Virus record (IMG/VR): IMGVR_UViG_640753023_000006
Direction: 5' to 3' (one strand)
Length of the DNA stretch: 34,631 nt
Source of the DNA: a virus
Lineage: Duplodnaviria; Heunggongvirae; Uroviricota; Caudoviricetes
Shown: positions 3,355 through 9,885 of the stretch, in pieces
Layout: every line of letters begins with the position of its first letter
How positions within the stretch are numbered: position 1 is the stretch's first letter
Translations under genes and position numbers: made by a program
Notes under the pieces: generated by a model
What the model was told of the DNA's origin: nothing
The model's database searches: none
The model's input: only the letters and a program-made list of their open reading frames with translations

Positions 3355-3626
3355 GTATTCGTATTGAAATTGGCGAACGTTATGTCGTTACCAGTGACAG
3401 CTTTCAGTTTATTCTCCACGAGAAAAAGAGAGCGGAAAGCGGTAAAAACGCCGGTCAGGAATGGCTGGCGGTGGTTGGTTATTACCCGAAATTAAGCCAG
3501 CTCGTTTCCGGCCTGATGCATCACGATATTCTGACCGGAAGCGCAAAGTCTTTTGCTGATTTAAACGCGCAGGTTGAGCAACTCAGCAAGCGTTGTTCAG
3601 AGGCTTTTGGCTCATATGGCCGTTAA
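3351..3626 (+). CDS. hypothetical early protein (P2 orf83 position)
   Basis: 91-aa ORF whose 3' end overlaps the A start. Confidence 0.5.
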   Translation: MSIRIEIGERYVVTSDSFQFILHEKKRAESGKNAGQEWLAVVGYYPKLSQLVSGLMHHDILTGSAKSFADLNAQVEQLSKRCSEAFGSYGR

Positions 3627-5907
3627 AGCCTCCGGGCGTTTTGTCCCTCCGTCAGCATTTACCGCAGGCACCGGTAAGACGTTTACCGGTGCTTATGCAT
3701 GGAACGCGCCACGCGAGGCCGTCGGGCGCGAAAGACCCCTTACACGTGACGAGATGCGTCAGGTGCAAGGTGTTTTATCCACGATTAACCGCCTGCCTTA
3801 CTTTTTGCGCTCGCTGTTTACTTCACGCTATGACTACATCCGGCGCAATAAAAGCCCGGTGCACGGGTTTTATTTCCTCACATCCACTTTTCAGCGTCGT
3901 TTATGGCCGCGCATTGAGCGTGTGAATCAGCGCCATGAAATGAACACCGACGCGTCGTTGCTGTTTCTGGCAGAGCGTGACCATTATGCGCGTCTGCCGG
4001 GGATGAATGATAAGGAGCTGAAAAAGTTTGCCGCCCGTATCTCATCGCAGCTTTTCATGATGTATGAGGAACTCTGCGATGCCTGGGTGGATGCGCATGG
4101 CGAAAAAGAATCGCTGTTTACGGATGAGGCGCAGGCTCACCTCTATGGTCATGTTGCTGGCGCTGCACGTGCTTTCAATATTTCCCCGCTCTACTGGAAA
4201 AAATACCGTAAAGGACAGATGACCACGAGGCAGGCATATTCTGCCATTGCCCGCCTGTTTAACGATGAGTGGTGGATTAGTCAGCTTAAAGGCCAGCGTA
4301 TGCGCTGGCATGAGGCGTTACTGATTGCTGTCGGGGAGGTCAATAAAGACCGTTCACCTTATGCCAGTAAACATGCCATTCGTGATGTGCGTGCACGCCG
4401 CCAGGCAAATCTGGAATTTCTTAAATCGTGTGACCTTGAAAACAGGGAAACCGGCGAACGCATCGACCTTATCAGTAAGGTGATGGGCAGTATTTCTAAT
4501 CCTGAAATTCGCCGGATGGAGCTGATGAACACCATTGCCGGTATTGAGCGTTACGCCGCCGCAGAGGGTGATGTGGGGATGTTTATCACGCTTACCGCGC
4601 CGTCAAAGTATCACCCGACACGTCAGGTCGGAAAAGGCGAAAGTAAAACCGTCCAGCTAAATCACGGCTGGAACGATGAGGCATTTAATCCAAAGGATGC
4701 GCAGCGTTATCTCTGCCATATCTGGAGCCTGATGCGCACGGCATTCAAGGATAATGATTTACAGGTCTACGGTTTGCGTGTTGTTGAACCACACCACGAC
4801 GGAACGCCGCACTGGCATATGATGCTTTTTTGTAATCCACGCCAGCGTAACCAGATTATCGAAATCATGCGTCGCTATGCGCTCAAAGAGGATGGCGACG
4901 AAAGAGGAGCCGCGCGAAACCGTTTTCAGGCAAAACATCTTAACCGGGGCGGTGCTGCGGGGTATATCGCAAAATACATCTCAAAAAACATCGATGGCTA
5001 TGCACTGGATGGTCAGCTCGATAATGATACCGGCAGGCCGCTGAAAGATACTGCTGCGGCTGTTACCGCATGGGCGTCAACGTGGCGAATTCCGCAATTT
5101 AAAACGGTTGGCCTGCCGACAATGGGGGCTTACCGTGAACTACGCAAATTGCCTCGCGGCGTCAGTATTGCTGATGAGTTTGACGAACGCGTCGAGGCTG
5201 CTCGCGCTGCCGCAGACAGTGGTGATTTTGCGTTGTATATCAGCGCGCAGGGTGGGGCAAATGTCCCGCGCGATTGTCAGACTGTCAGGGTTGCCCGTAG
5301 CCCGTCGGATGACGTTAACGAGTACGAGGAAGAAGTTGAGAGAGTGGTCGGCATTTACGCGCCGCATCTCGGCGCGCGTCATATTCATATCACCAGAACG
5401 ACGGACTGGCGCATTGTGCCGAAAGTTCCGGTCGTTGAGCCTTTGACTTTAAAAAGCGGCATCGCCGCGCCTCGGAGTCCTGTCAATAACTGTGGAAAGC
5501 TCACCGGTGGTGATACTTCGTTACCGGCTCCCACACCTTCTGAGCACGCCGCAGCAGTGCTTAATCTGGTTGATGACGGTGTTATTGAATGGAATGAACC
5601 GGAGGTCGTGAGGGCGCTCAGGGGCGCATTAAAATACGACCTGAGAACGCCAAACCGTCAGCAAAGAAACGGAAGCCCGTTAAAACCGCATGAAATTGCA
5701 CCATCTGCCAGACTGACCAGGTCTGAACGATTGCAAATCACCCGTATCCGCGTTGACCTTGCTCAGAACGGTATCATGCCGCAGCGATGGGAGCTTGAGG
5801 CGCTGGCGCGTGGAGCGACCGTAAATTATGACGGGAAAAAATTCACGTATCCGGTCGCTGATGGTTGGGGGGGATTCATAGGGCGCTTTGATTTTTTCTG
5901 TGTTTGA
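3616..5907 (+). CDS. A: replication initiation endonuclease, P2 gene A-like (rolling-circle Rep)
   Basis: 763-aa ORF from ATG 3616 (MAVKASGRFVPPSAFTAGTGKTF...); contains the HxH-type motif region VVEPHHDGTPHWHMMLF and the tyrosine region GYIAKYISKNIDGY characteristic of phage rolling-circle initiators. Size matches P2 A (about 761 aa). Confidence 0.9.
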   Translation: MAVKASGRFVPPSAFTAGTGKTFTGAYAWNAPREAVGRERPLTRDEMRQVQGVLSTINRLPYFLRSLFTSRYDYIRRNKSPVHGFYFLTSTFQRRLWPRIERVNQRHEMNTDASLLFLAERDHYARLPGMNDKELKKFAARISSQLFMMYEELCDAWVDAHGEKESLFTDEAQAHLYGHVAGAARAFNISPLYWKKYRKGQMTTRQAYSAIARLFNDEWWISQLKGQRMRWHEALLIAVGEVNKDRSPYASKHAIRDVRARRQANLEFLKSCDLENRETGERIDLISKVMGSISNPEIRRMELMNTIAGIERYAAAEGDVGMFITLTAPSKYHPTRQVGKGESKTVQLNHGWNDEAFNPKDAQRYLCHIWSLMRTAFKDNDLQVYGLRVVEPHHDGTPHWHMMLFCNPRQRNQIIEIMRRYALKEDGDERGAARNRFQAKHLNRGGAAGYIAKYISKNIDGYALDGQLDNDTGRPLKDTAAAVTAWASTWRIPQFKTVGLPTMGAYRELRKLPRGVSIADEFDERVEAARAAADSGDFALYISAQGGANVPRDCQTVRVARSPSDDVNEYEEEVERVVGIYAPHLGARHIHITRTTDWRIVPKVPVVEPLTLKSGIAAPRSPVNNCGKLTGGDTSLPAPTPSEHAAAVLNLVDDGVIEWNEPEVVRALRGALKYDLRTPNRQQRNGSPLKPHEIAPSARLTRSERLQITRIRVDLAQNGIMPQRWELEALARGATVNYDGKKFTYPVADGWGGFIGRFDFFCV

Positions 5908-6130
5908 CATAGAATAGCCCCGTTACCGCTTGGGACATCTACTTTGCATTACTCTTGGTATTAGCTTTGTACAAAGGGTATAAAGGCTGCTATTGGCAAC
6001 AATAGTGCTGGCATGGAGATTGCCTCATGTTAAAGCTAGTGAATGTACGCCAGTACAACCGCTACCGCTTTGGGCGTTGGGAGACGGTGCGTAAGCACCG
6101 TCGTTCTTACCCAAAACGATAATATGCGGC

Positions 6131-8347
6131 CTAAGCGGTAACGTTTTCCTCTTCTAGTTCGTCCATCATTTTTAAATAATGCATTTCGTCACCAGTAGCT
6201 GAAAATATTGTTCTCAATTGTTTTAGGTATTTATCTGGGTCTATGTCGCCCATATCAGTAATATTTACCGCATCAGAGTGAGAACCTCTGTTAATGTATC
6301 TGTAGAATGCTTTGAAATCACTGTTGCTATCGTCGCGTGCCAACTTTGTTAATTCATCTTGTAGAGCATCTGTTCTATGAACAAATGCAAAATAATATTC
6401 TAGTATGTTTCTCATAATATTCGGTATTATGATTTTGTTTGCTTTGCCATCTTTTGCATCTTTTAATATTTGCCACAAAGATTGATATTCATTCTGTATG
6501 CTGTTTTTTTGTATTTCAGTAATTATACTAAAATCATTTTTCGTTACTCTACCTAGATAATAGTTTTTCTTAAATAGTTTGTCTTCTCTGCTTTTAGGAG
6601 ATAGCTTAATAAGTTCATGAAAGAAATAAAGATTGTGAGTAAGGATTAATACCTTCTTTGTTAATTCATTTTTTATAATGTGGTGATGAATAATTGATGC
6701 GATGTCGTAGACATAGTTTTGCGATAGACTAGATATTGGATCGTCAATAACAATAAAAATATCCCTGCTATCGGTATCATTTTTATCGGTTTTACCTTTA
6801 CAGCACTCTAAAAAATAAAGAAACGTTATTAGTGTTTTTTCACCTTCGCTAAGAGATCTATAAACATTTTGGTTTTTTGTATGCCCTGGTCGAGATATAA
6901 TGTACATATCTTTTCTTTCTGCATGTTTTTCAATACAAAAACCAGAGATCCCTAGATTTTTTAAATGGGTGTTTATTGAGTCTATCGTAGAATCAATGTT
7001 AGATATTTTATCTCGCAATGCTTTTATTGTGAGATTATTTTCTTTTCCTTGTTGCTCAATATTATTTAATTCATCATGAACTTTCTTTTTGATATCAAAG
7101 AATTTTTCTTTGTGTTTGGATAAATTCTCTAAATCATCGCTGCAAAAAGCATGGAGAGCCCCCCAAACTTGTTTTCCGATTTTATTCTCATACTCTTTGA
7201 GTTTTTTAACCTTATCATTTATGTCTCTTATTTTCTTGTTAACAGCGCCTATGCTTTCCTGAACATGATTTTCTAGTTCTTTATCAATTTCTAATGTAAC
7301 GCATGTTGATGGATTGTTGATCTTATCAATAATGTTTATTAAATTTTTTTCTGCAATGTTTTGCAATATTTTAATATTGGAAATAATGTTCTCTTTATCT
7401 TTCTCATTGATTAGTGCACATGATGATATATTGTTTTGTATTTCGTTAAAATGATATATGGTATTTTTCTCATAAACTGACTTTATATCTGAGAGCTGTT
7501 TTACTTTCTTTGAATAACTTTCGTCAAATATTGATTTAAGGGCATTTAAAAATTCGTGACTAATAGTTTTTTCCTGACAAAACGGACATGTAGAACCGTC
7601 TAAATAATGTTCTTTACCTTTTTTTACCCAGTCAAGATTATGAAGTTTATTAATGGTTTCTGATAAATAGCTATTGCTTGTATCTATTATAGGTGTTGCT
7701 AATGTATTTACATCATCAATTGATGGGGTATATGGATGTAAAGGAGTTATTAATGCGGTTTCATTGTTTCTATTTTCTAATAGTATAGAGTATTCTTTTG
7801 CTATATCATTTAAATTAATAAAGGTGATTGGTGAGGATGATTTTATCATCTCAAAAAAAGGTCTTTTATAGCCAACTTTACCTTTCATTAAGGTTTTTAG
7901 TACAGAGTTTCTGATTGGTTCTGTTTTTTTCCAGATCGATTCGATGTATTCATTTTCTTTTTTTTCCATTTCTGCTTCTAATTTCAATAACACTCCTTTT
8001 TTTTGTCTATATTGCTCTGTGAGTTGCTGTTTAATTGCTTCTTTTTCAATTAATTGTTTTTCAATATCTGCATTTTCTTTACTTAATGTAAAAACACCTT
8101 TTTGTTCCTGTGCATTATAGAAGTTATCTTCAATAAATTTAGTGTTGTAAACAAGAGGTTTGTAATTGTCAAGAAGGGTACATTCACACTCGTTATAATC
8201 TGTGTGTGTAGAGTCGTAGAAATAATTTGAAATGGTAGATTTGCCACAACCATTTTGGCCGTATAGTATGTTTACTCTTTTTTCAAGATTCAGTATTGTG
8301 AAGGCGTCTTTCTTATAACTGGTAACATTTTTTAATCTAAGTTCCAT
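6131..8347 (-). CDS. Rad50/RloC-like ABC ATPase with coiled-coil CxxC zinc hook and C-terminal effector-like domain; candidate anti-phage defence protein
   Basis: 738 aa, ATG at 8345-8347 with GAGG 7 nt upstream. Walker A YGQNGCGKST (DNA about 8234-8260); long K/E-rich coiled-coil segments; CPFC at DNA 7577-7588 (GSTCPFCQEK); ABC signature RSLSEGEK; Walker B/D-loop IFIVIDDPISSLS; H-loop LILTHN; then about 150 aa including RNILE-x6-H. Strongly AT-rich relative to the flanking phage genes; sits at the P2 tin/old position. Confidence 0.85.
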   Translation of the reverse strand: MELRLKNVTSYKKDAFTILNLEKRVNILYGQNGCGKSTISNYFYDSTHTDYNECECTLLDNYKPLVYNTKFIEDNFYNAQEQKGVFTLSKENADIEKQLIEKEAIKQQLTEQYRQKKGVLLKLEAEMEKKENEYIESIWKKTEPIRNSVLKTLMKGKVGYKRPFFEMIKSSSPITFINLNDIAKEYSILLENRNNETALITPLHPYTPSIDDVNTLATPIIDTSNSYLSETINKLHNLDWVKKGKEHYLDGSTCPFCQEKTISHEFLNALKSIFDESYSKKVKQLSDIKSVYEKNTIYHFNEIQNNISSCALINEKDKENIISNIKILQNIAEKNLINIIDKINNPSTCVTLEIDKELENHVQESIGAVNKKIRDINDKVKKLKEYENKIGKQVWGALHAFCSDDLENLSKHKEKFFDIKKKVHDELNNIEQQGKENNLTIKALRDKISNIDSTIDSINTHLKNLGISGFCIEKHAERKDMYIISRPGHTKNQNVYRSLSEGEKTLITFLYFLECCKGKTDKNDTDSRDIFIVIDDPISSLSQNYVYDIASIIHHHIIKNELTKKVLILTHNLYFFHELIKLSPKSREDKLFKKNYYLGRVTKNDFSIITEIQKNSIQNEYQSLWQILKDAKDGKANKIIIPNIMRNILEYYFAFVHRTDALQDELTKLARDDSNSDFKAFYRYINRGSHSDAVNITDMGDIDPDKYLKQLRTIFSATGDEMHYLKMMDELEEENVTA

Positions 8348-8662
8348 TTTTATGCCTCATACGATAAAGCTTTTATTGTATGTAAAAAAGCAGCTTAATA
8401 TAGCCACTTAGTGGTAAAGATCTACCTTAAGACTTTGATATGTTCAAGAGGCATATAACGTAAGTGTTCGTTGAGCCAAATGTGTTTACGCTATGACGAG
8501 TTGGTCGTTTTTTGACAATCCTGTAGGAGCTATAGATAGGCGTATATTAAGTGCGTGTTTTTGCATGTGTCAGATACTATTCTTTTTGTCAGTTTCGGTC
8601 AGTGCTGATGTGATTTCAGTTTCATCATGCAACTGCATTAAAACCGCCCCATGAAGCGGGCG

Positions 8663-8681
8663 GGCGAGGCGGGGAAAGCAC
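8663..8681 (+). other. cos site: 19-nt cohesive end of P2-type phages
   Basis: Exact match to the P2 cohesive-end sequence GGCGAGGCGGGGAAAGCAC as I recall it, in the expected position just downstream of portal gene Q. Confidence 0.8.
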
Positions 8682-8823
8682 TGCGCGCTGGCGGTGGTGC
8701 TGATTTTATTTTTTCAGCGTCTCAGCGCGTCGTGACGGCGCTTAGTCTGCCCGTTGAGGCGCTGGTGTGTCTGCGGGGTGTTTTGTGCGGTGGTGAGCGT
8801 GTGAGGGCGTGATGACGGGGTGT

Positions 8824-8845
8824 AAAAAAGCCGCCCGCAGGCGGC
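8824..8845 (-). terminator. intrinsic terminator after Q (end of the P-Q operon)
   Basis: On the minus strand: GCCGCC-TGCG-GGCGGC stem-loop (8830-8845) followed by UUUUUU (complement of A-run 8824-8829), immediately 3' of the Q stop. Confidence 0.75.
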
Positions 8846-8850
8846 GATGT

Positions 8851-9885
8851 TCAGCCGTTGTCAGTGTCCAGTGAGTAGTTTTTAAAGCGGATGACCTCCT
8901 GACCGAGCCAGCCGTTTATTTCCCGAATCCTGTCCTGTAGCGGGATAAGTTCATTGCGGACAAAGACCTTTGCCACTTTCTCAATATCACCCAGAGACCC
9001 GACGTTTTCCGGCTTGCCGCCCATCAACTGAAAGGGGATGCGGTGCGCATCCAGCAGGTCAACGGCGCTGGCTTTTTTGATATTAAAAAAATCGTCCTTC
9101 GTCGCCACTTCACTGAGCGGGATAATTTTAATGCCGTCGGCTTTCCCCTGTGGGGCATAGAGAAACAGGTTTTTAAAGTTATTGCGGCCTTTCGACTTCA
9201 CCATGTTTTCGCGAAGCATTTCGATATCGTTGCGGTCCTGCACGGCATCGGTGACGTACATGATGTATCCGGCATGCGCGCCGTTTTCGTAATACTTGCG
9301 GCGGAACAGCGTGGCCGACTCATTCAGCCAGGCAGAGTTAAGGGCGCTGAGATATTCCGGCAGGCCGTACAGCTCCTGATTAATATCCGGCTCCAGCAGG
9401 TGAAACACGGAACCGGGCGCGAAAGGTGTCGGCTCGTTGAAGGACGGCACCCACCAGTAAACATCCTCCTCCACGCCACGGCGGGTATATTTTGCCGGTG
9501 AGGTTTCCAGTCTGATGATCTTACCGGTGGTGCTGTAACGCTTTTCCAGAAACGCATTACCGAACACCAGAAAATCCAGCACAAAGCGGCTGAAATCCTG
9601 TTGCGAAAGCCACGGATGCGGGATAAATGTCGAGGCCAGAATATTGCGTTTAACGTAAATCGGTGAGCTGTGATGCACGGCAGCACGCAGGCTTTTCGCC
9701 AGACCGGTAAAGCTGACCGGCGGCTCATACCATCTGCCGTTACTGATGCACTCGACGTAATCCAGAATGTCACGGCGGTCGAGTACCGGCACCGGCTCAC
9801 CAAAGGTGAATGCCTCCATTTTCGGGGCGCTGGCGGTCATTTTTTTTGCCGCAGGTTGCGGTGTTTTCCCTTTTTTCTTGCTCAT
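8851..9885 (-). CDS. Q: portal protein (P2 gpQ)
   Basis: 344-aa product MSKKKGKTPQPAAKKMTASAPKMEAFTFGEPVPVLDRRDILDYVE... recognised as P2-type portal; start overlaps the P stop (ATGA). Confidence 0.93.
   Translation of the reverse strand: MSKKKGKTPQPAAKKMTASAPKMEAFTFGEPVPVLDRRDILDYVECISNGRWYEPPVSFTGLAKSLRAAVHHSSPIYVKRNILASTFIPHPWLSQQDFSRFVLDFLVFGNAFLEKRYSTTGKIIRLETSPAKYTRRGVEEDVYWWVPSFNEPTPFAPGSVFHLLEPDINQELYGLPEYLSALNSAWLNESATLFRRKYYENGAHAGYIMYVTDAVQDRNDIEMLRENMVKSKGRNNFKNLFLYAPQGKADGIKIIPLSEVATKDDFFNIKKASAVDLLDAHRIPFQLMGGKPENVGSLGDIEKVAKVFVRNELIPLQDRIREINGWLGQEVIRFKNYSLDTDNG

Follow-up and report, generated by a model that had tools for sequence, protein, structure and literature searches.

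In reference P2, old and tin lie between gene A and the cos-proximal portal gene Q, on the strand antisense to the early operon and transcribed from the cos-proximal side. The locus examined here raises the question of what a single large gene in that same slot encodes, whether it belongs to a known family, and what it may do for the prophage and its host. The window (the whole stretch of DNA that was analyzed, 34,631 nucleotides) contains an rloC-type gene at 6131..8347 (−), which begins with ATG and encodes a protein of 738 aa (85.9 kDa), with a GAGG Shine-Dalgarno sequence 7 nt 5' of the start codon. Its GC content is 0.297 (GC3 0.25), whereas gpA and the portal gene stand at 0.528 and 0.530. 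A 2.2-kb open reading frame within 30%-GC DNA rules out chance by a wide margin, and the gene is real. At the DNA level E. coli APEC O1 is a 100% match, and the encoded protein is WP_000423308.1.

The left neighbor is a P2 gpA-like replication endonuclease at 3574..5907 (+), and to the right are the P2 cohesive-end sequence, GGCGAGGCGGGGAAAGCAC, at 8663..8681 (+), an exact 19-nt match where 0.01 would be expected by chance, and then portal Q at 8851..9885 (−). No other large gene occupies the slot. Both slot and orientation therefore match reference P2, and an initial annotation of this DNA, which had described an AT-rich antisense gene at the tin/old hotspot, was borne out on each of these points. 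Other P2-like prophages, from E. coli, Enterobacter, and Yersinia, hold divergent rloC alleles (45-65% identical) in this slot. Beyond ~8625 sequence identity between the loci disappears, which places the right boundary of the variable cassette about 35-40 nt from cos. Scans for tRNAs and Rfam families over the whole window returned no matches.

The protein was compared with Pfam, NCBIfam, and PADLOC models and with the PDB, its structure was predicted using AlphaFold2 and assigned with DSSP, and conservation was counted in an alignment of 29 homologues. The Pfam model PF13166 (AAA_13) matched residues 17-716 over essentially the full model (positions 11-713 of 713; E 2e-111; 374 bits vs. a 36-bit gathering cut-off). 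The best PADLOC model was PDC-S06, again at full length (E 1e-254); this is a computational single-gene candidate label and appears to be PADLOC's name for AAA_13/RloC-type proteins. Homologues and the exact sequence carry the public name "wobble nucleotide-excising tRNase".

All of the ABC motifs quoted in the initial annotation are present in the translation, on the minus strand. Walker A (GQNGCGKST, residues 30-38, 8234-8260) has G30, G35, and K36 invariant in 29/29 homologues. Invariant throughout the same alignment are E501, G502, and E503 of the signature LSEGEK (residues 499-504, 6836-6853), D535, D536, and P537 of the Walker B/D-loop IVIDDP (residues 532-537, followed by ISSLS; 6737-6754), and T570 and H571 of the H-loop, or switch histidine, LTHN (residues 569-572, 6632-6643).

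A predicted helical arm of about 360 residues (~residues 90-447, 7007..8080 (−)) is inserted in this ATPase head. In the AlphaFold2 model (mean pLDDT 81) it is mostly helical by DSSP, with one long helix (90-141) exiting the head, another (403-447) re-entering it, and shorter helices between. The putative zinc hook, CPFC at 7577-7588 (−), has both cysteines (C254 and C257) invariant in 29/29 homologues and sits in a loop (residues 249-263) near mid-arm, a placement that describes the order of secondary-structure elements rather than the geometry of an apex. The best fold matches of the whole model in the PDB are the heads of Rad50, SMC, LmuB, and PtuA with their coiled coils; no RloC or PrrC structure was among these matches, and a PDB sequence search with the 738-aa protein gave no match at E ≤ 1. 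Between alleles the arm is the most divergent region, at 29-58% identity vs. 62-87% for the heads and the C-terminal domain. Profile, fold, and hook thus agree with the earlier description of a Rad50/RloC-like ABC ATPase bearing a CxxC hook.

The remaining ~residues 612-738 (6134..6514 (−)) are predicted to form an all-helical HEPN-type anticodon-nuclease domain. Fold comparison found this domain HEPN-like, and it shows the all-helical fold and R-x4-6-H motif of the PrrC/RloC branch of the HEPN superfamily (Anantharaman et al. 2013). The PADLOC PrrC model matched residues 490-730, spanning the C-terminal head and the nuclease domain (E 1e-12). The predicted triad consists of R646 (6410-6412) and E650 (6398-6400), within the motif RNILE at 6398-6412 (−), and S689-H690 (6278-6283 (−)). 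R646 is conserved in 29/29 homologues, E650 in 27/29 (Asp in the other two), and S689-H690 in 28/29, and the full triad is conserved in 28 of the 29. An R-x3-E-x6-H arrangement had been suggested initially; its Arg and Glu are indeed R646 and E650, but its His (H657) is conserved in only 11/29, and the conserved His is H690, giving the spacing R646-x3-E650-x39-S689-H690. The published RloC rule is R-x3-E-x36-52-H, often with Ser preceding the His (PMC2610378), and because the x39 spacing and the Ser-His pair fit this rule, the triad counts as an RloC signature. The suggestion of a new effector fused to a Rad50-like sensor is unsupported, since the C-terminal domain is of the ordinary PrrC/RloC HEPN anticodon-nuclease type.

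Taken by sequence, the 738-aa protein belongs to the known RloC family and is carried by a phage. Every sequence feature by which Davidov and Kaufmann (2008) recognized RloC was found, namely the ABC motifs, a helical insert with CxxC, a C-proximal triad, and a size within the published range of 658-897 aa, and the protein is in their own list. Table S1 of that paper, "Properties of RloC orthologs", gives as entry 51 the E. coli APEC O1 protein YP_852004 (738 aa), with flanks described as "Phage replication initiation, Capsid". The name "E. coli APECO1 RloC" was then used in a 2012 alignment (PMC3458546), and Rousset 2022 tabulated the protein at the P2 hotspot as "RloC-like", where it was listed and not cloned. 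The finding is therefore not new, since the DNA matches APEC O1 at 100% and the protein of that strain has been listed as an RloC ortholog since 2008; the gene, the family, and the placement at the P2 hotspot are all already on record, contrary to the novelty implied at the outset. Anantharaman et al. (2013) set a prophage group, "APECO1_4465", beside PrrC and RloC as a family, not inside RloC; judging from its description and gi order, APECO1_4465 (gi 117623091) is probably this gene. In the searched literature, no experimental test of this protein or of any P2-borne allele was found. The sole unreported item is a conserved, unannotated 31-codon ORF that abuts rloC.

Comparison with characterized systems sets the protein in context. 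Together with GkaRloC and AbaRloC (Davidov & Kaufmann 2008; Klaiman et al. 2012, 2013) it has the same architecture and all of the defining sequence features, and it too is encoded by a lone gene on a mobile element, unlinked to any R-M system. Members of the present subclade are shorter, however (~715-745 aa vs. 804 and 826 aa for the characterized orthologs), and differ in being carried at the cos-proximal P2 hotspot and in having the conserved 31-codon ORF; long relatives of "canonical" layout in the alignment are only 17-22% identical to the protein. EcoPrrC likewise joins an ABC ATPase N-domain to a HEPN anticodon-nuclease C-domain with an Arg-Glu-His triad, but PrrC is without the coiled-coil/CxxC insert and is always embedded in a silencing type Ic hsd (R-M) locus, whereas the gene here has the 360-residue insert with CxxC and lies between the gpA and portal genes of the phage. 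In APECO1 RloC the PrrC Box is degenerate (PMC3458546).

P2 Old shares the slot, the strand, the cos-proximal direction of transcription, and the use of an ABC ATPase sensor to control a nuclease. Old has a TOPRIM domain, whereas here there is a HEPN effector and a long CxxC-bearing arm, and no TOPRIM or OLD model was among the Pfam, PADLOC, and NCBIfam matches, which separates the protein from the OLD family (P2 Old, GajA) and agrees with the earlier statement that it is not an Old ortholog. Old and RloC substitute for one another at the hotspot as analogues, with homology limited to the ABC fold. Rad50, SbcC, and T4 gp46 give the best structural matches for the head and its emerging helices and share a CxxC in mid-insert, but the arm here is much shorter, no Mre11/SbcD neighbor is present, and the C-terminal HEPN RNase domain is absent from Rad50 proteins. 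Lamassu LmuB, Septu/retron PtuA, and PARIS AriA are also ABC/SMC-like defense ATPase sensors and gave weak profile or fold matches; their separate effectors (LmuA, PtuB, AriB) are absent here, where the effector is fused. No LmuA/LmuC operon accompanies the gene, and the LmuB model scored E 2e-10 vs. 1e-254 for PDC-S06.

On these grounds we think it likely that the APEC O1-type RloC, a Rad50-like sensor fused to a HEPN anticodon nuclease, is carried at the P2 hotspot as a DNA-end-triggered abortive defense. By analogy with orthologs at an identity of roughly 20%, we infer that this protein hydrolyzes ATP, binds zinc, cleaves tRNA, responds to the DNA-end trigger, and protects against phage. 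Within a lysogen, the arm with its zinc hook and the ATPase of the same polypeptide would keep the nuclease silent. Infection by another phage or genotoxic stress would create linear DNA ends or breaks, these would switch on a DNA-dependent ATPase, the nuclease would then be released to cut tRNA anticodon loops (excision of the wobble nucleotide is the mode of cutting of G. kaustophilus RloC), and translation would stop. The infected cell would yield no phage, so that the clone and the prophage would be protected.

Several published observations on RloC orthologs bear on this scheme: mutating the zinc hook (ZH) turns the nuclease on, the ATPase needs DNA and reacts to linear molecules, not to circular ones, and inducers of double-strand breaks activate the protein in vivo (PMC3458546, PMC3874168). 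Wobble-excising tRNase activity under control of a DNA-dependent ATPase and zinc hook has been shown for GkaRloC and AbaRloC only, and direct phage protection by canonical RloC is weakly documented in the literature consulted. A translation-disabling nuclease that senses DNA damage or phage, as first proposed from the letters, fits the profile, motif, fold, and literature evidence.

A candidate weak promoter, TTGAAC-N17-TAGATC at 8419..8447 (−), lies ~70-100 nt upstream of the ATG. It contains GATC and is one of few islands conserved between diverged alleles, and this conservation is what suggests a promoter; a consensus scan returned 13 sites where 11.9 were expected by chance, and the candidate was absent from its output.

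At the other end of the gene, a conserved cassette "tail" fills the space between the gpA and rloC stops (5908..6130, no strand assigned). It carries the small ORF and two hairpins (5990-6005 and 6083-6102), the former with one compensatory pair change, and it folds with z of about −3 on both strands. Between loci whose rloC proteins share 46-65% identity, the tail is 86-93% identical, and it probably supplies the 3' end or terminator for the convergent transcripts. It occurs in only 77 of 5426 E. coli genomes, and an AAA_13 gene adjoined it in 3/3 loci inspected.

The unannotated 31-codon ORF, MLKLVNVRQYNRYRFGRWETVRKHRRSYPKR, lies at 6027..6122 (+) behind a GGAG Shine-Dalgarno sequence (6015-6018) and encodes a predicted peptide with a pI of 11.8. 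It is convergent with rloC, and the two stop codons are 8 nt apart. It was intact beside every allele of the subclade that was examined, in both orientations, in E. coli, Enterobacter, Yersinia, Neptuniibacter, Celerinatantimonas, and Pseudomonas. In this ORF the alleles differ mainly by synonymous substitutions, and the peptide is 65-94% identical vs. 39-52% for the nuclease. The peptide matched phrog_21154 (E 1e-9); Pfam and NCBIfam searches gave no match, and an exhaustive phmmer search recovered only 9 weak cluster representatives. It was seen once without an rloC neighbor (L099) and was missing near two rloC homologues of 37-40% identity. The peptide may act as a partner or regulator of rloC.

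Two other explanations of the small ORF were considered. An antisense-RNA or type I toxin reading is unlikely, given that the peptide is strongly basic and not hydrophobic and that in Pseudomonas the ORF follows rloC by 200-300 nt and shares its strand. The ORF was also weighed as part of the P2 backbone that follows gene A, and this was rejected; P2 flanks were found in 2172 genomes vs. 77 with the tail, and the ORF also accompanies rloC outside P2 contexts (L018, L019). Because the ORF lies 3' of gene A of the early operon and converges on rloC, the lytic program could make both peptide and antisense transcription. It is a speculative and on balance doubtful proposal that RloC of this subclade works with the basic 31-aa peptide as a prophage-run switch for self-immunity or licensing; if true, the peptide or the antisense transcript would turn RloC off or on when the prophage's own replication and cos cutting create DNA ends.

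The small ORF also bears on whether the gene should be read as RloC in the canonical sense. Its intact presence next to every subclade member, at higher identity than the nuclease, would suit a sister clade of canonical RloC, corresponding to the "APECO1_4465" ABC-HEPN group, in which nuclease and peptide form a two-gene module whose trigger, RNA target, or both may differ from those of G. kaustophilus and A. baylyi RloC; for instance, a phage protein could be sensed via the fast-evolving arm, or the nuclease could be silenced or released by the peptide. The divergence of the arm, the separate listing of the group by Anantharaman et al., and the candidate status of the PDC-S06 label point in the same direction. 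However, all of the sequence features named by the RloC authors are present and the protein is in their own ortholog list, coiled coils diverge fast without selection for novelty, and the association with the peptide fails in the three cases given above. We hold this reading to be rather unlikely.

The slot itself could suggest that the gene serves the prophage, either as a Rad50-like handler of DNA ends near cos or as an addiction or stabilization module that kills prophage-free cells, since cos and the replication gene adjoin rloC, the head is Rad50-like, and about one quarter of P2 hotspots carry non-defense cargo such as partition systems. Such a role is very improbable: the nuclease triad is conserved in a fold that is that of an RNase and not of a DNA-repair factor, a partner resembling Mre11/SbcD is missing, most P2-like phages lack the gene (as the tail and flank counts indicate), its AT-rich foreign composition marks it as accessory, and the addiction variant would call for a still hypothetical cognate antitoxin.

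We give equally little credence to the view that the gene is an inert passenger undergoing decay and now functionless in this strain, although promoter-like elements are weak and disrupted alleles are common; for one allele, the largest E. coli cluster is a 546-aa fragment caused by a frameshift in an A-run. The ORF of the window is unbroken and retains all of the catalytic residues, the sequence is 100% identical across many unrelated isolates, purifying selection on the family motifs is clear, and low expression is what the RloC authors would expect for a toxic nuclease.

Frameshifted, split, or IS5-interrupted rloC alleles are common among the homologous loci, and because of this, activity in any given strain is not guaranteed. 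For the likely reading as a DNA-end-triggered anticodon nuclease, the conserved 31-codon ORF next to the gene suggests that the picture of RloC as a single self-regulating protein may be incomplete for this subclade. According to the RloC authors, testing of their model calls for a natural host of RloC together with a cognate phage that carries enzymes for tRNA repair (PMC3458546). Infecting an E. coli P2 lysogen that carries rloC with T4 and with pnk/rnl mutants of T4 would provide such an experimental system, and no test of this kind was found in the searched literature. A 2026 preprint reports that P2 Old is an ABC-ATPase-controlled tRNase which responds to DNA structures, and that it kills by cleaving tRNA when aberrant DNA sets it off (bioRxiv 10.64898/2026.07.10.737580). 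Either Old or RloC, two unrelated tRNases under the control of an ABC ATPase, can occupy the old/tin slot.

The rloC-type gene at 6131..8347 (-), for a Rad50-like ATPase fused to a predicted tRNA-cutting nuclease (RloC), was confirmed as an open reading frame (ORF) of 738 aa, with an ATG start and a Shine-Dalgarno GAGG 7 nt 5' of it. GC content was 0.297 in the gene (GC3 0.25), 0.53 in the flanking phage genes and 0.505 in the whole window. The gene is bounded on the left by a P2 gpA-type replication endonuclease gene (3574..5907 (+)) and on the right by an exact match to the 19-nt P2 cos (8663-8681, chance expectation 0.01) and by the portal gene Q (8851..9885 (-)). Orf91, tin and old fill the equivalent interval of the P2 reference, with tin and old on the minus strand and their promoter adjoining cosR. 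The rloC-type gene thus shares both slot and orientation with old/tin, and the tin/old hotspot position proposed in the initial annotation was borne out. This hotspot has 1,650 gene arrangements across 18,150 E. coli loci (Rousset et al., PMC9122126). The cos-side boundary of the rloC cassette lies near 8625. Two ORFs of 53 codons each extend across the cos region (8651-8812 (+) and 8493-8654 (+)). Some RefSeq genomes annotate the former as a hypothetical protein, WP_000816492.1; it overlaps cos as well as conserved non-coding sequence and is unlikely to be a gene. Upstream of rloC, alleles had mostly diverged, apart from a few conserved islands (ACATGCAAAA and CTTGAACA...GGTAGATCT with a GATC Dam site; 8419-8447 (-), about 8560-8568), which could act as a weak promoter or in regulation.

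Translation placed every motif quoted earlier at its expected minus-strand coordinates: Walker A GQNGCGKST (8234-8260), the CxxC motif CPFC (7577-7588), the ABC signature LSEGEK (6836-6853), Walker B IVIDDP (6737-6754) and the H-loop LTHN (6632-6643). Using profile searches, the protein was matched over its whole length to Pfam PF13166 (AAA_13, the family that had been expected; 374 bits, E 2e-111) and to phrog_2801 (no assigned function), as well as to PADLOC candidate family PDC-S06 (E 1e-254) and, over residues 490-730, to the PADLOC PrrC model (E 1e-12). An NCBIfam search gave no informative match. TOPRIM and OLD models were absent from the profile matches, so the protein is not an Old orthologue, in agreement with the initial annotation. 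A search of 5.8 billion proteins returned 118 relatives; several at ~30% identity carry the RloC name "wobble nucleotide-excising tRNase", as does the exact window sequence in one public source.

Catalytic residues were assigned from an alignment of 29 diverse relatives, in which G30/G35/K36, C254/C257, E501-G502-E503, D535-D536-P537, T570-H571 and R646 were invariant and E650, S689 and H690 were kept in at least 90% (R646 29/29; E650 27/29, with Asp in the other two; S689-H690 28/29). Glu-to-His spacing was 30-43 residues in the 28 relatives with Ser-His and 39 in the window protein. In the RloC founding paper, Arg-x3-Glu-x36-52-His is the signature of the family's nuclease, with Ser a frequent residue before His; its counterparts are R320/E324/H356 in PrrC and R692/E696/H737 in the Geobacillus kaustophilus orthologue GkaRloC (PMC2610378). 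As judged from the alignment, the predicted triad R646/E650/H690 fits this signature exactly. The initial annotation had instead named H657 (in FAFVH) as the catalytic histidine, which is wrong given its retention in only 11 of the 29 relatives, and its alternative of a new effector was not upheld. In all but these two points its interpretation was essentially right.

An AlphaFold2 model of the protein was built on the alignment (mean pLDDT 81). Residues 1-80 form a beta-rich N-lobe followed by a 52-residue helix (90-141), about 260 mostly helical residues with CPFC in a loop (249-263), a 45-residue helix (403-447) leading back to a C-lobe with the signature, Walker B and H-loop, and finally an all-helical C-terminal domain. 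Foldseek matched the model in the PDB to Rad50 (Mre11-Rad50-Nbs1) first, then to SMC/condensin heads, Lamassu LmuB, retron/Septu PtuA and PARIS AriA; no RloC or PrrC structure was among these matches, and a PDB sequence search gave no match. The putative placement of CxxC at the arm apex is based on its invariance and on its lying centrally within the insert.

The gene, its family and its place in the P2 hotspot are already known. E. coli APEC O1 and other ExPEC/APEC genomes match window positions 5900-8860 at 100% identity, and 44 of 5426 complete E. coli genomes carry this allele across the whole interval. The APEC O1 protein (WP_000423308.1, "AAA family ATPase") is encoded in a P2-like prophage adjoining pflA. 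It is entry 51 of "Properties of RloC orthologs" (Escherichia coli APEC O1, YP_852004, 738 aa; flanks given as "Phage replication initiation, Capsid"; Davidov & Kaufmann 2008, Supplementary Table 1), and "E. coli APECO1 RloC" was aligned with Photorhabdus PrrC by Klaiman et al. 2012 (PMC3458546). Anantharaman et al. 2013 took "APECO1_4465" of avian pathogenic E. coli as the namesake of an ABC-HEPN group that is carried by prophages and, in their proposal, blocks other phages; judging by its description and by gi order, we infer that APECO1_4465 is the window gene. WP_000423308 also appears in the table of P2 hotspot loci of Rousset et al. 2022, where "AAA_13" is system no. 5 (420 occurrences, remark "RloC-like") and is not among the systems cloned; papers naming PDC-S06 still give it candidate status. 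No experimental work on the window protein or any P2-borne allele was found in the literature searched. APEC O1 (NC_008563) has a second P2-like prophage whose unlike hotspot cargo, DprA plus phosphoribosyltransferase, is one of the systems cloned by Rousset et al., who list a DprA plus phosphoribosyltransferase system among those giving defence; one strain thus holds two different hotspot cargos.

The window protein belongs to a shorter subclade (about 715-745 aa) and is 17-22% identical to long-form relatives with GkaRloC-like coordinates (e.g. C294, R699/E703/H744). Among P2-borne alleles, ATPase heads and nuclease domain (HEPN) were 62-87% identical, compared with 29-58% in the arm (residues 90-447, window 7007-8080), a divergence that could reflect ordinary coiled-coil drift or selection. 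DNA similarity to Enterobacter phage ENT4 was limited to the 3' third of rloC and the tail beyond it, which suggests recombination inside the gene. Broken alleles were common (loci L013, from E. coli MS 198-1, and L100, search hits H36-H39): one was IS5-interrupted and partly deleted, several were recorded as a pair of "AAA family ATPase" genes, and in a widespread allele (1244 sequences in its cluster) a frameshift in an A run gave 167-aa and 546-aa products.

Proteins 45-65% identical to window RloC hold the equivalent gpA-Q slot in P2-like prophages of E. coli, Enterobacter and Yersinia, and the portal-to-cos flank was nearly identical to the window in aligned E. coli loci. Hotspot position and allele behaviour support a defence role. 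GkaRloC excises the wobble nucleotide; mutating its triad abolishes nuclease activity and toxicity, and its zinc-hook mutants are hyperactive and freed from zinc inhibition (PMC2610378). Its nuclease is turned on by its own ATPase, which requires linear DNA, and hook mutations short-circuit this switch (PMC3458546). GkaRloC and the Acinetobacter baylyi orthologue AbaRloC are activated in E. coli by DSB inducers, AbaRloC also in its own host, where its natural targets are tRNA-Glu and tRNA-Gln. RloC is reportedly activated by T4-induced DNA breaks as well (Bitton et al. 2015). Since only these two orthologues have been studied, the mechanism for window RloC is borrowed, and everything past its sequence, fold and position is inferential. 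Most likely, the protein would be silent in the lysogen, would be turned on by DNA ends or breaks arising in superinfection or genotoxic stress, and would then cut anticodon loops and arrest translation; the outcome would be abortive infection, to the gain of the prophage-carrying clone. P2 Old has itself been reported to be a tRNase under ABC-ATPase control, with aberrant DNA as its trigger (2026 preprint, bioRxiv 10.64898/2026.07.10.737580), so the slot would alternate between two unrelated solutions to one task. In a Yersinia enterocolitica hotspot (L017), the rloC-type gene and small ORF adjoin a reverse-transcriptase gene (RVT_1), placing two candidate defence genes in one slot. In Neptuniibacter marinus (L018, 1-3981), two large genes (1482 and 706 aa, no Pfam matches) lie 5' of the rloC-type gene with a 20-nt gap and may form an operon with it in a non-phage context.

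The tail between the gpA and rloC stops (5908-6130, 223 bp) showed unexpected conservation, at 86-93% identity among loci whose RloC proteins were 46-65% identical. Of 5426 E. coli genomes, only 77 carried it, and an AAA_13 gene adjoined it in all three of those loci inspected. Folding z was about -3 on both strands. In one hairpin (5990-6005, CTATTG-GCAA-CAATAG), a T-A pair was replaced by C-G in L002/L013, a compensatory change; a second, with an invariant stem (6083-6102), lies inside a small ORF and, on the opposite strand, 29 nt beyond the rloC stop. This 31-codon ORF (6027-6122 (+); MLKLVNVRQYNRYRFGRWETVRKHRRSYPKR, pI 11.8) has GGAG 8 nt 5' of it, is convergent with rloC (8 nt between stop codons) and lacks RefSeq annotation. 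Its very basic predicted peptide has the core VRQYxR[YF]R[FL]GxWExVCxHxRS[YL]PxR, and nucleotide changes from allele to allele are mostly synonymous (5/7 against L002, 8/13 against L003). The peptide matched phrog_21154 (no assigned function, E 1e-9), with no match in Pfam or NCBIfam searches.

Six-frame translations of 99 fetched loci were searched using tblastn and an HMM. The ORF was intact beside every enterobacterial rloC allele and also beside the Yersinia, Neptuniibacter, Celerinatantimonas and three Pseudomonas genes; apart from the window, it was found in L002, L003, L011-L020, L028, L045 and L100. It was absent beside all relatives at ≤34% identity and two at 37-40%. The peptide was 81% identical in Yersinia (RloC 45%) and 65% in Neptuniibacter (RloC 39%). 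The ORF was convergent in Celerinatantimonas and, beside three Pseudomonas genes, lay on the rloC strand 200-300 nt downstream, in one case between rloC and an AbiH gene. One copy without rloC was flanked by two serine recombinases, with an AbiJ-like gene nearby. Two features, conservation above that of the nuclease and persistence where the orientation switches, speak for a genuine small gene associated with this RloC subclade; its putative product might, speculatively, be a silencer, licensing factor or self-immunity factor. No earlier description of this conserved ORF was found in the literature searched, and with the window rloC gene a natural and tractable system is available in E. coli for the still putative antiviral role of RloC.
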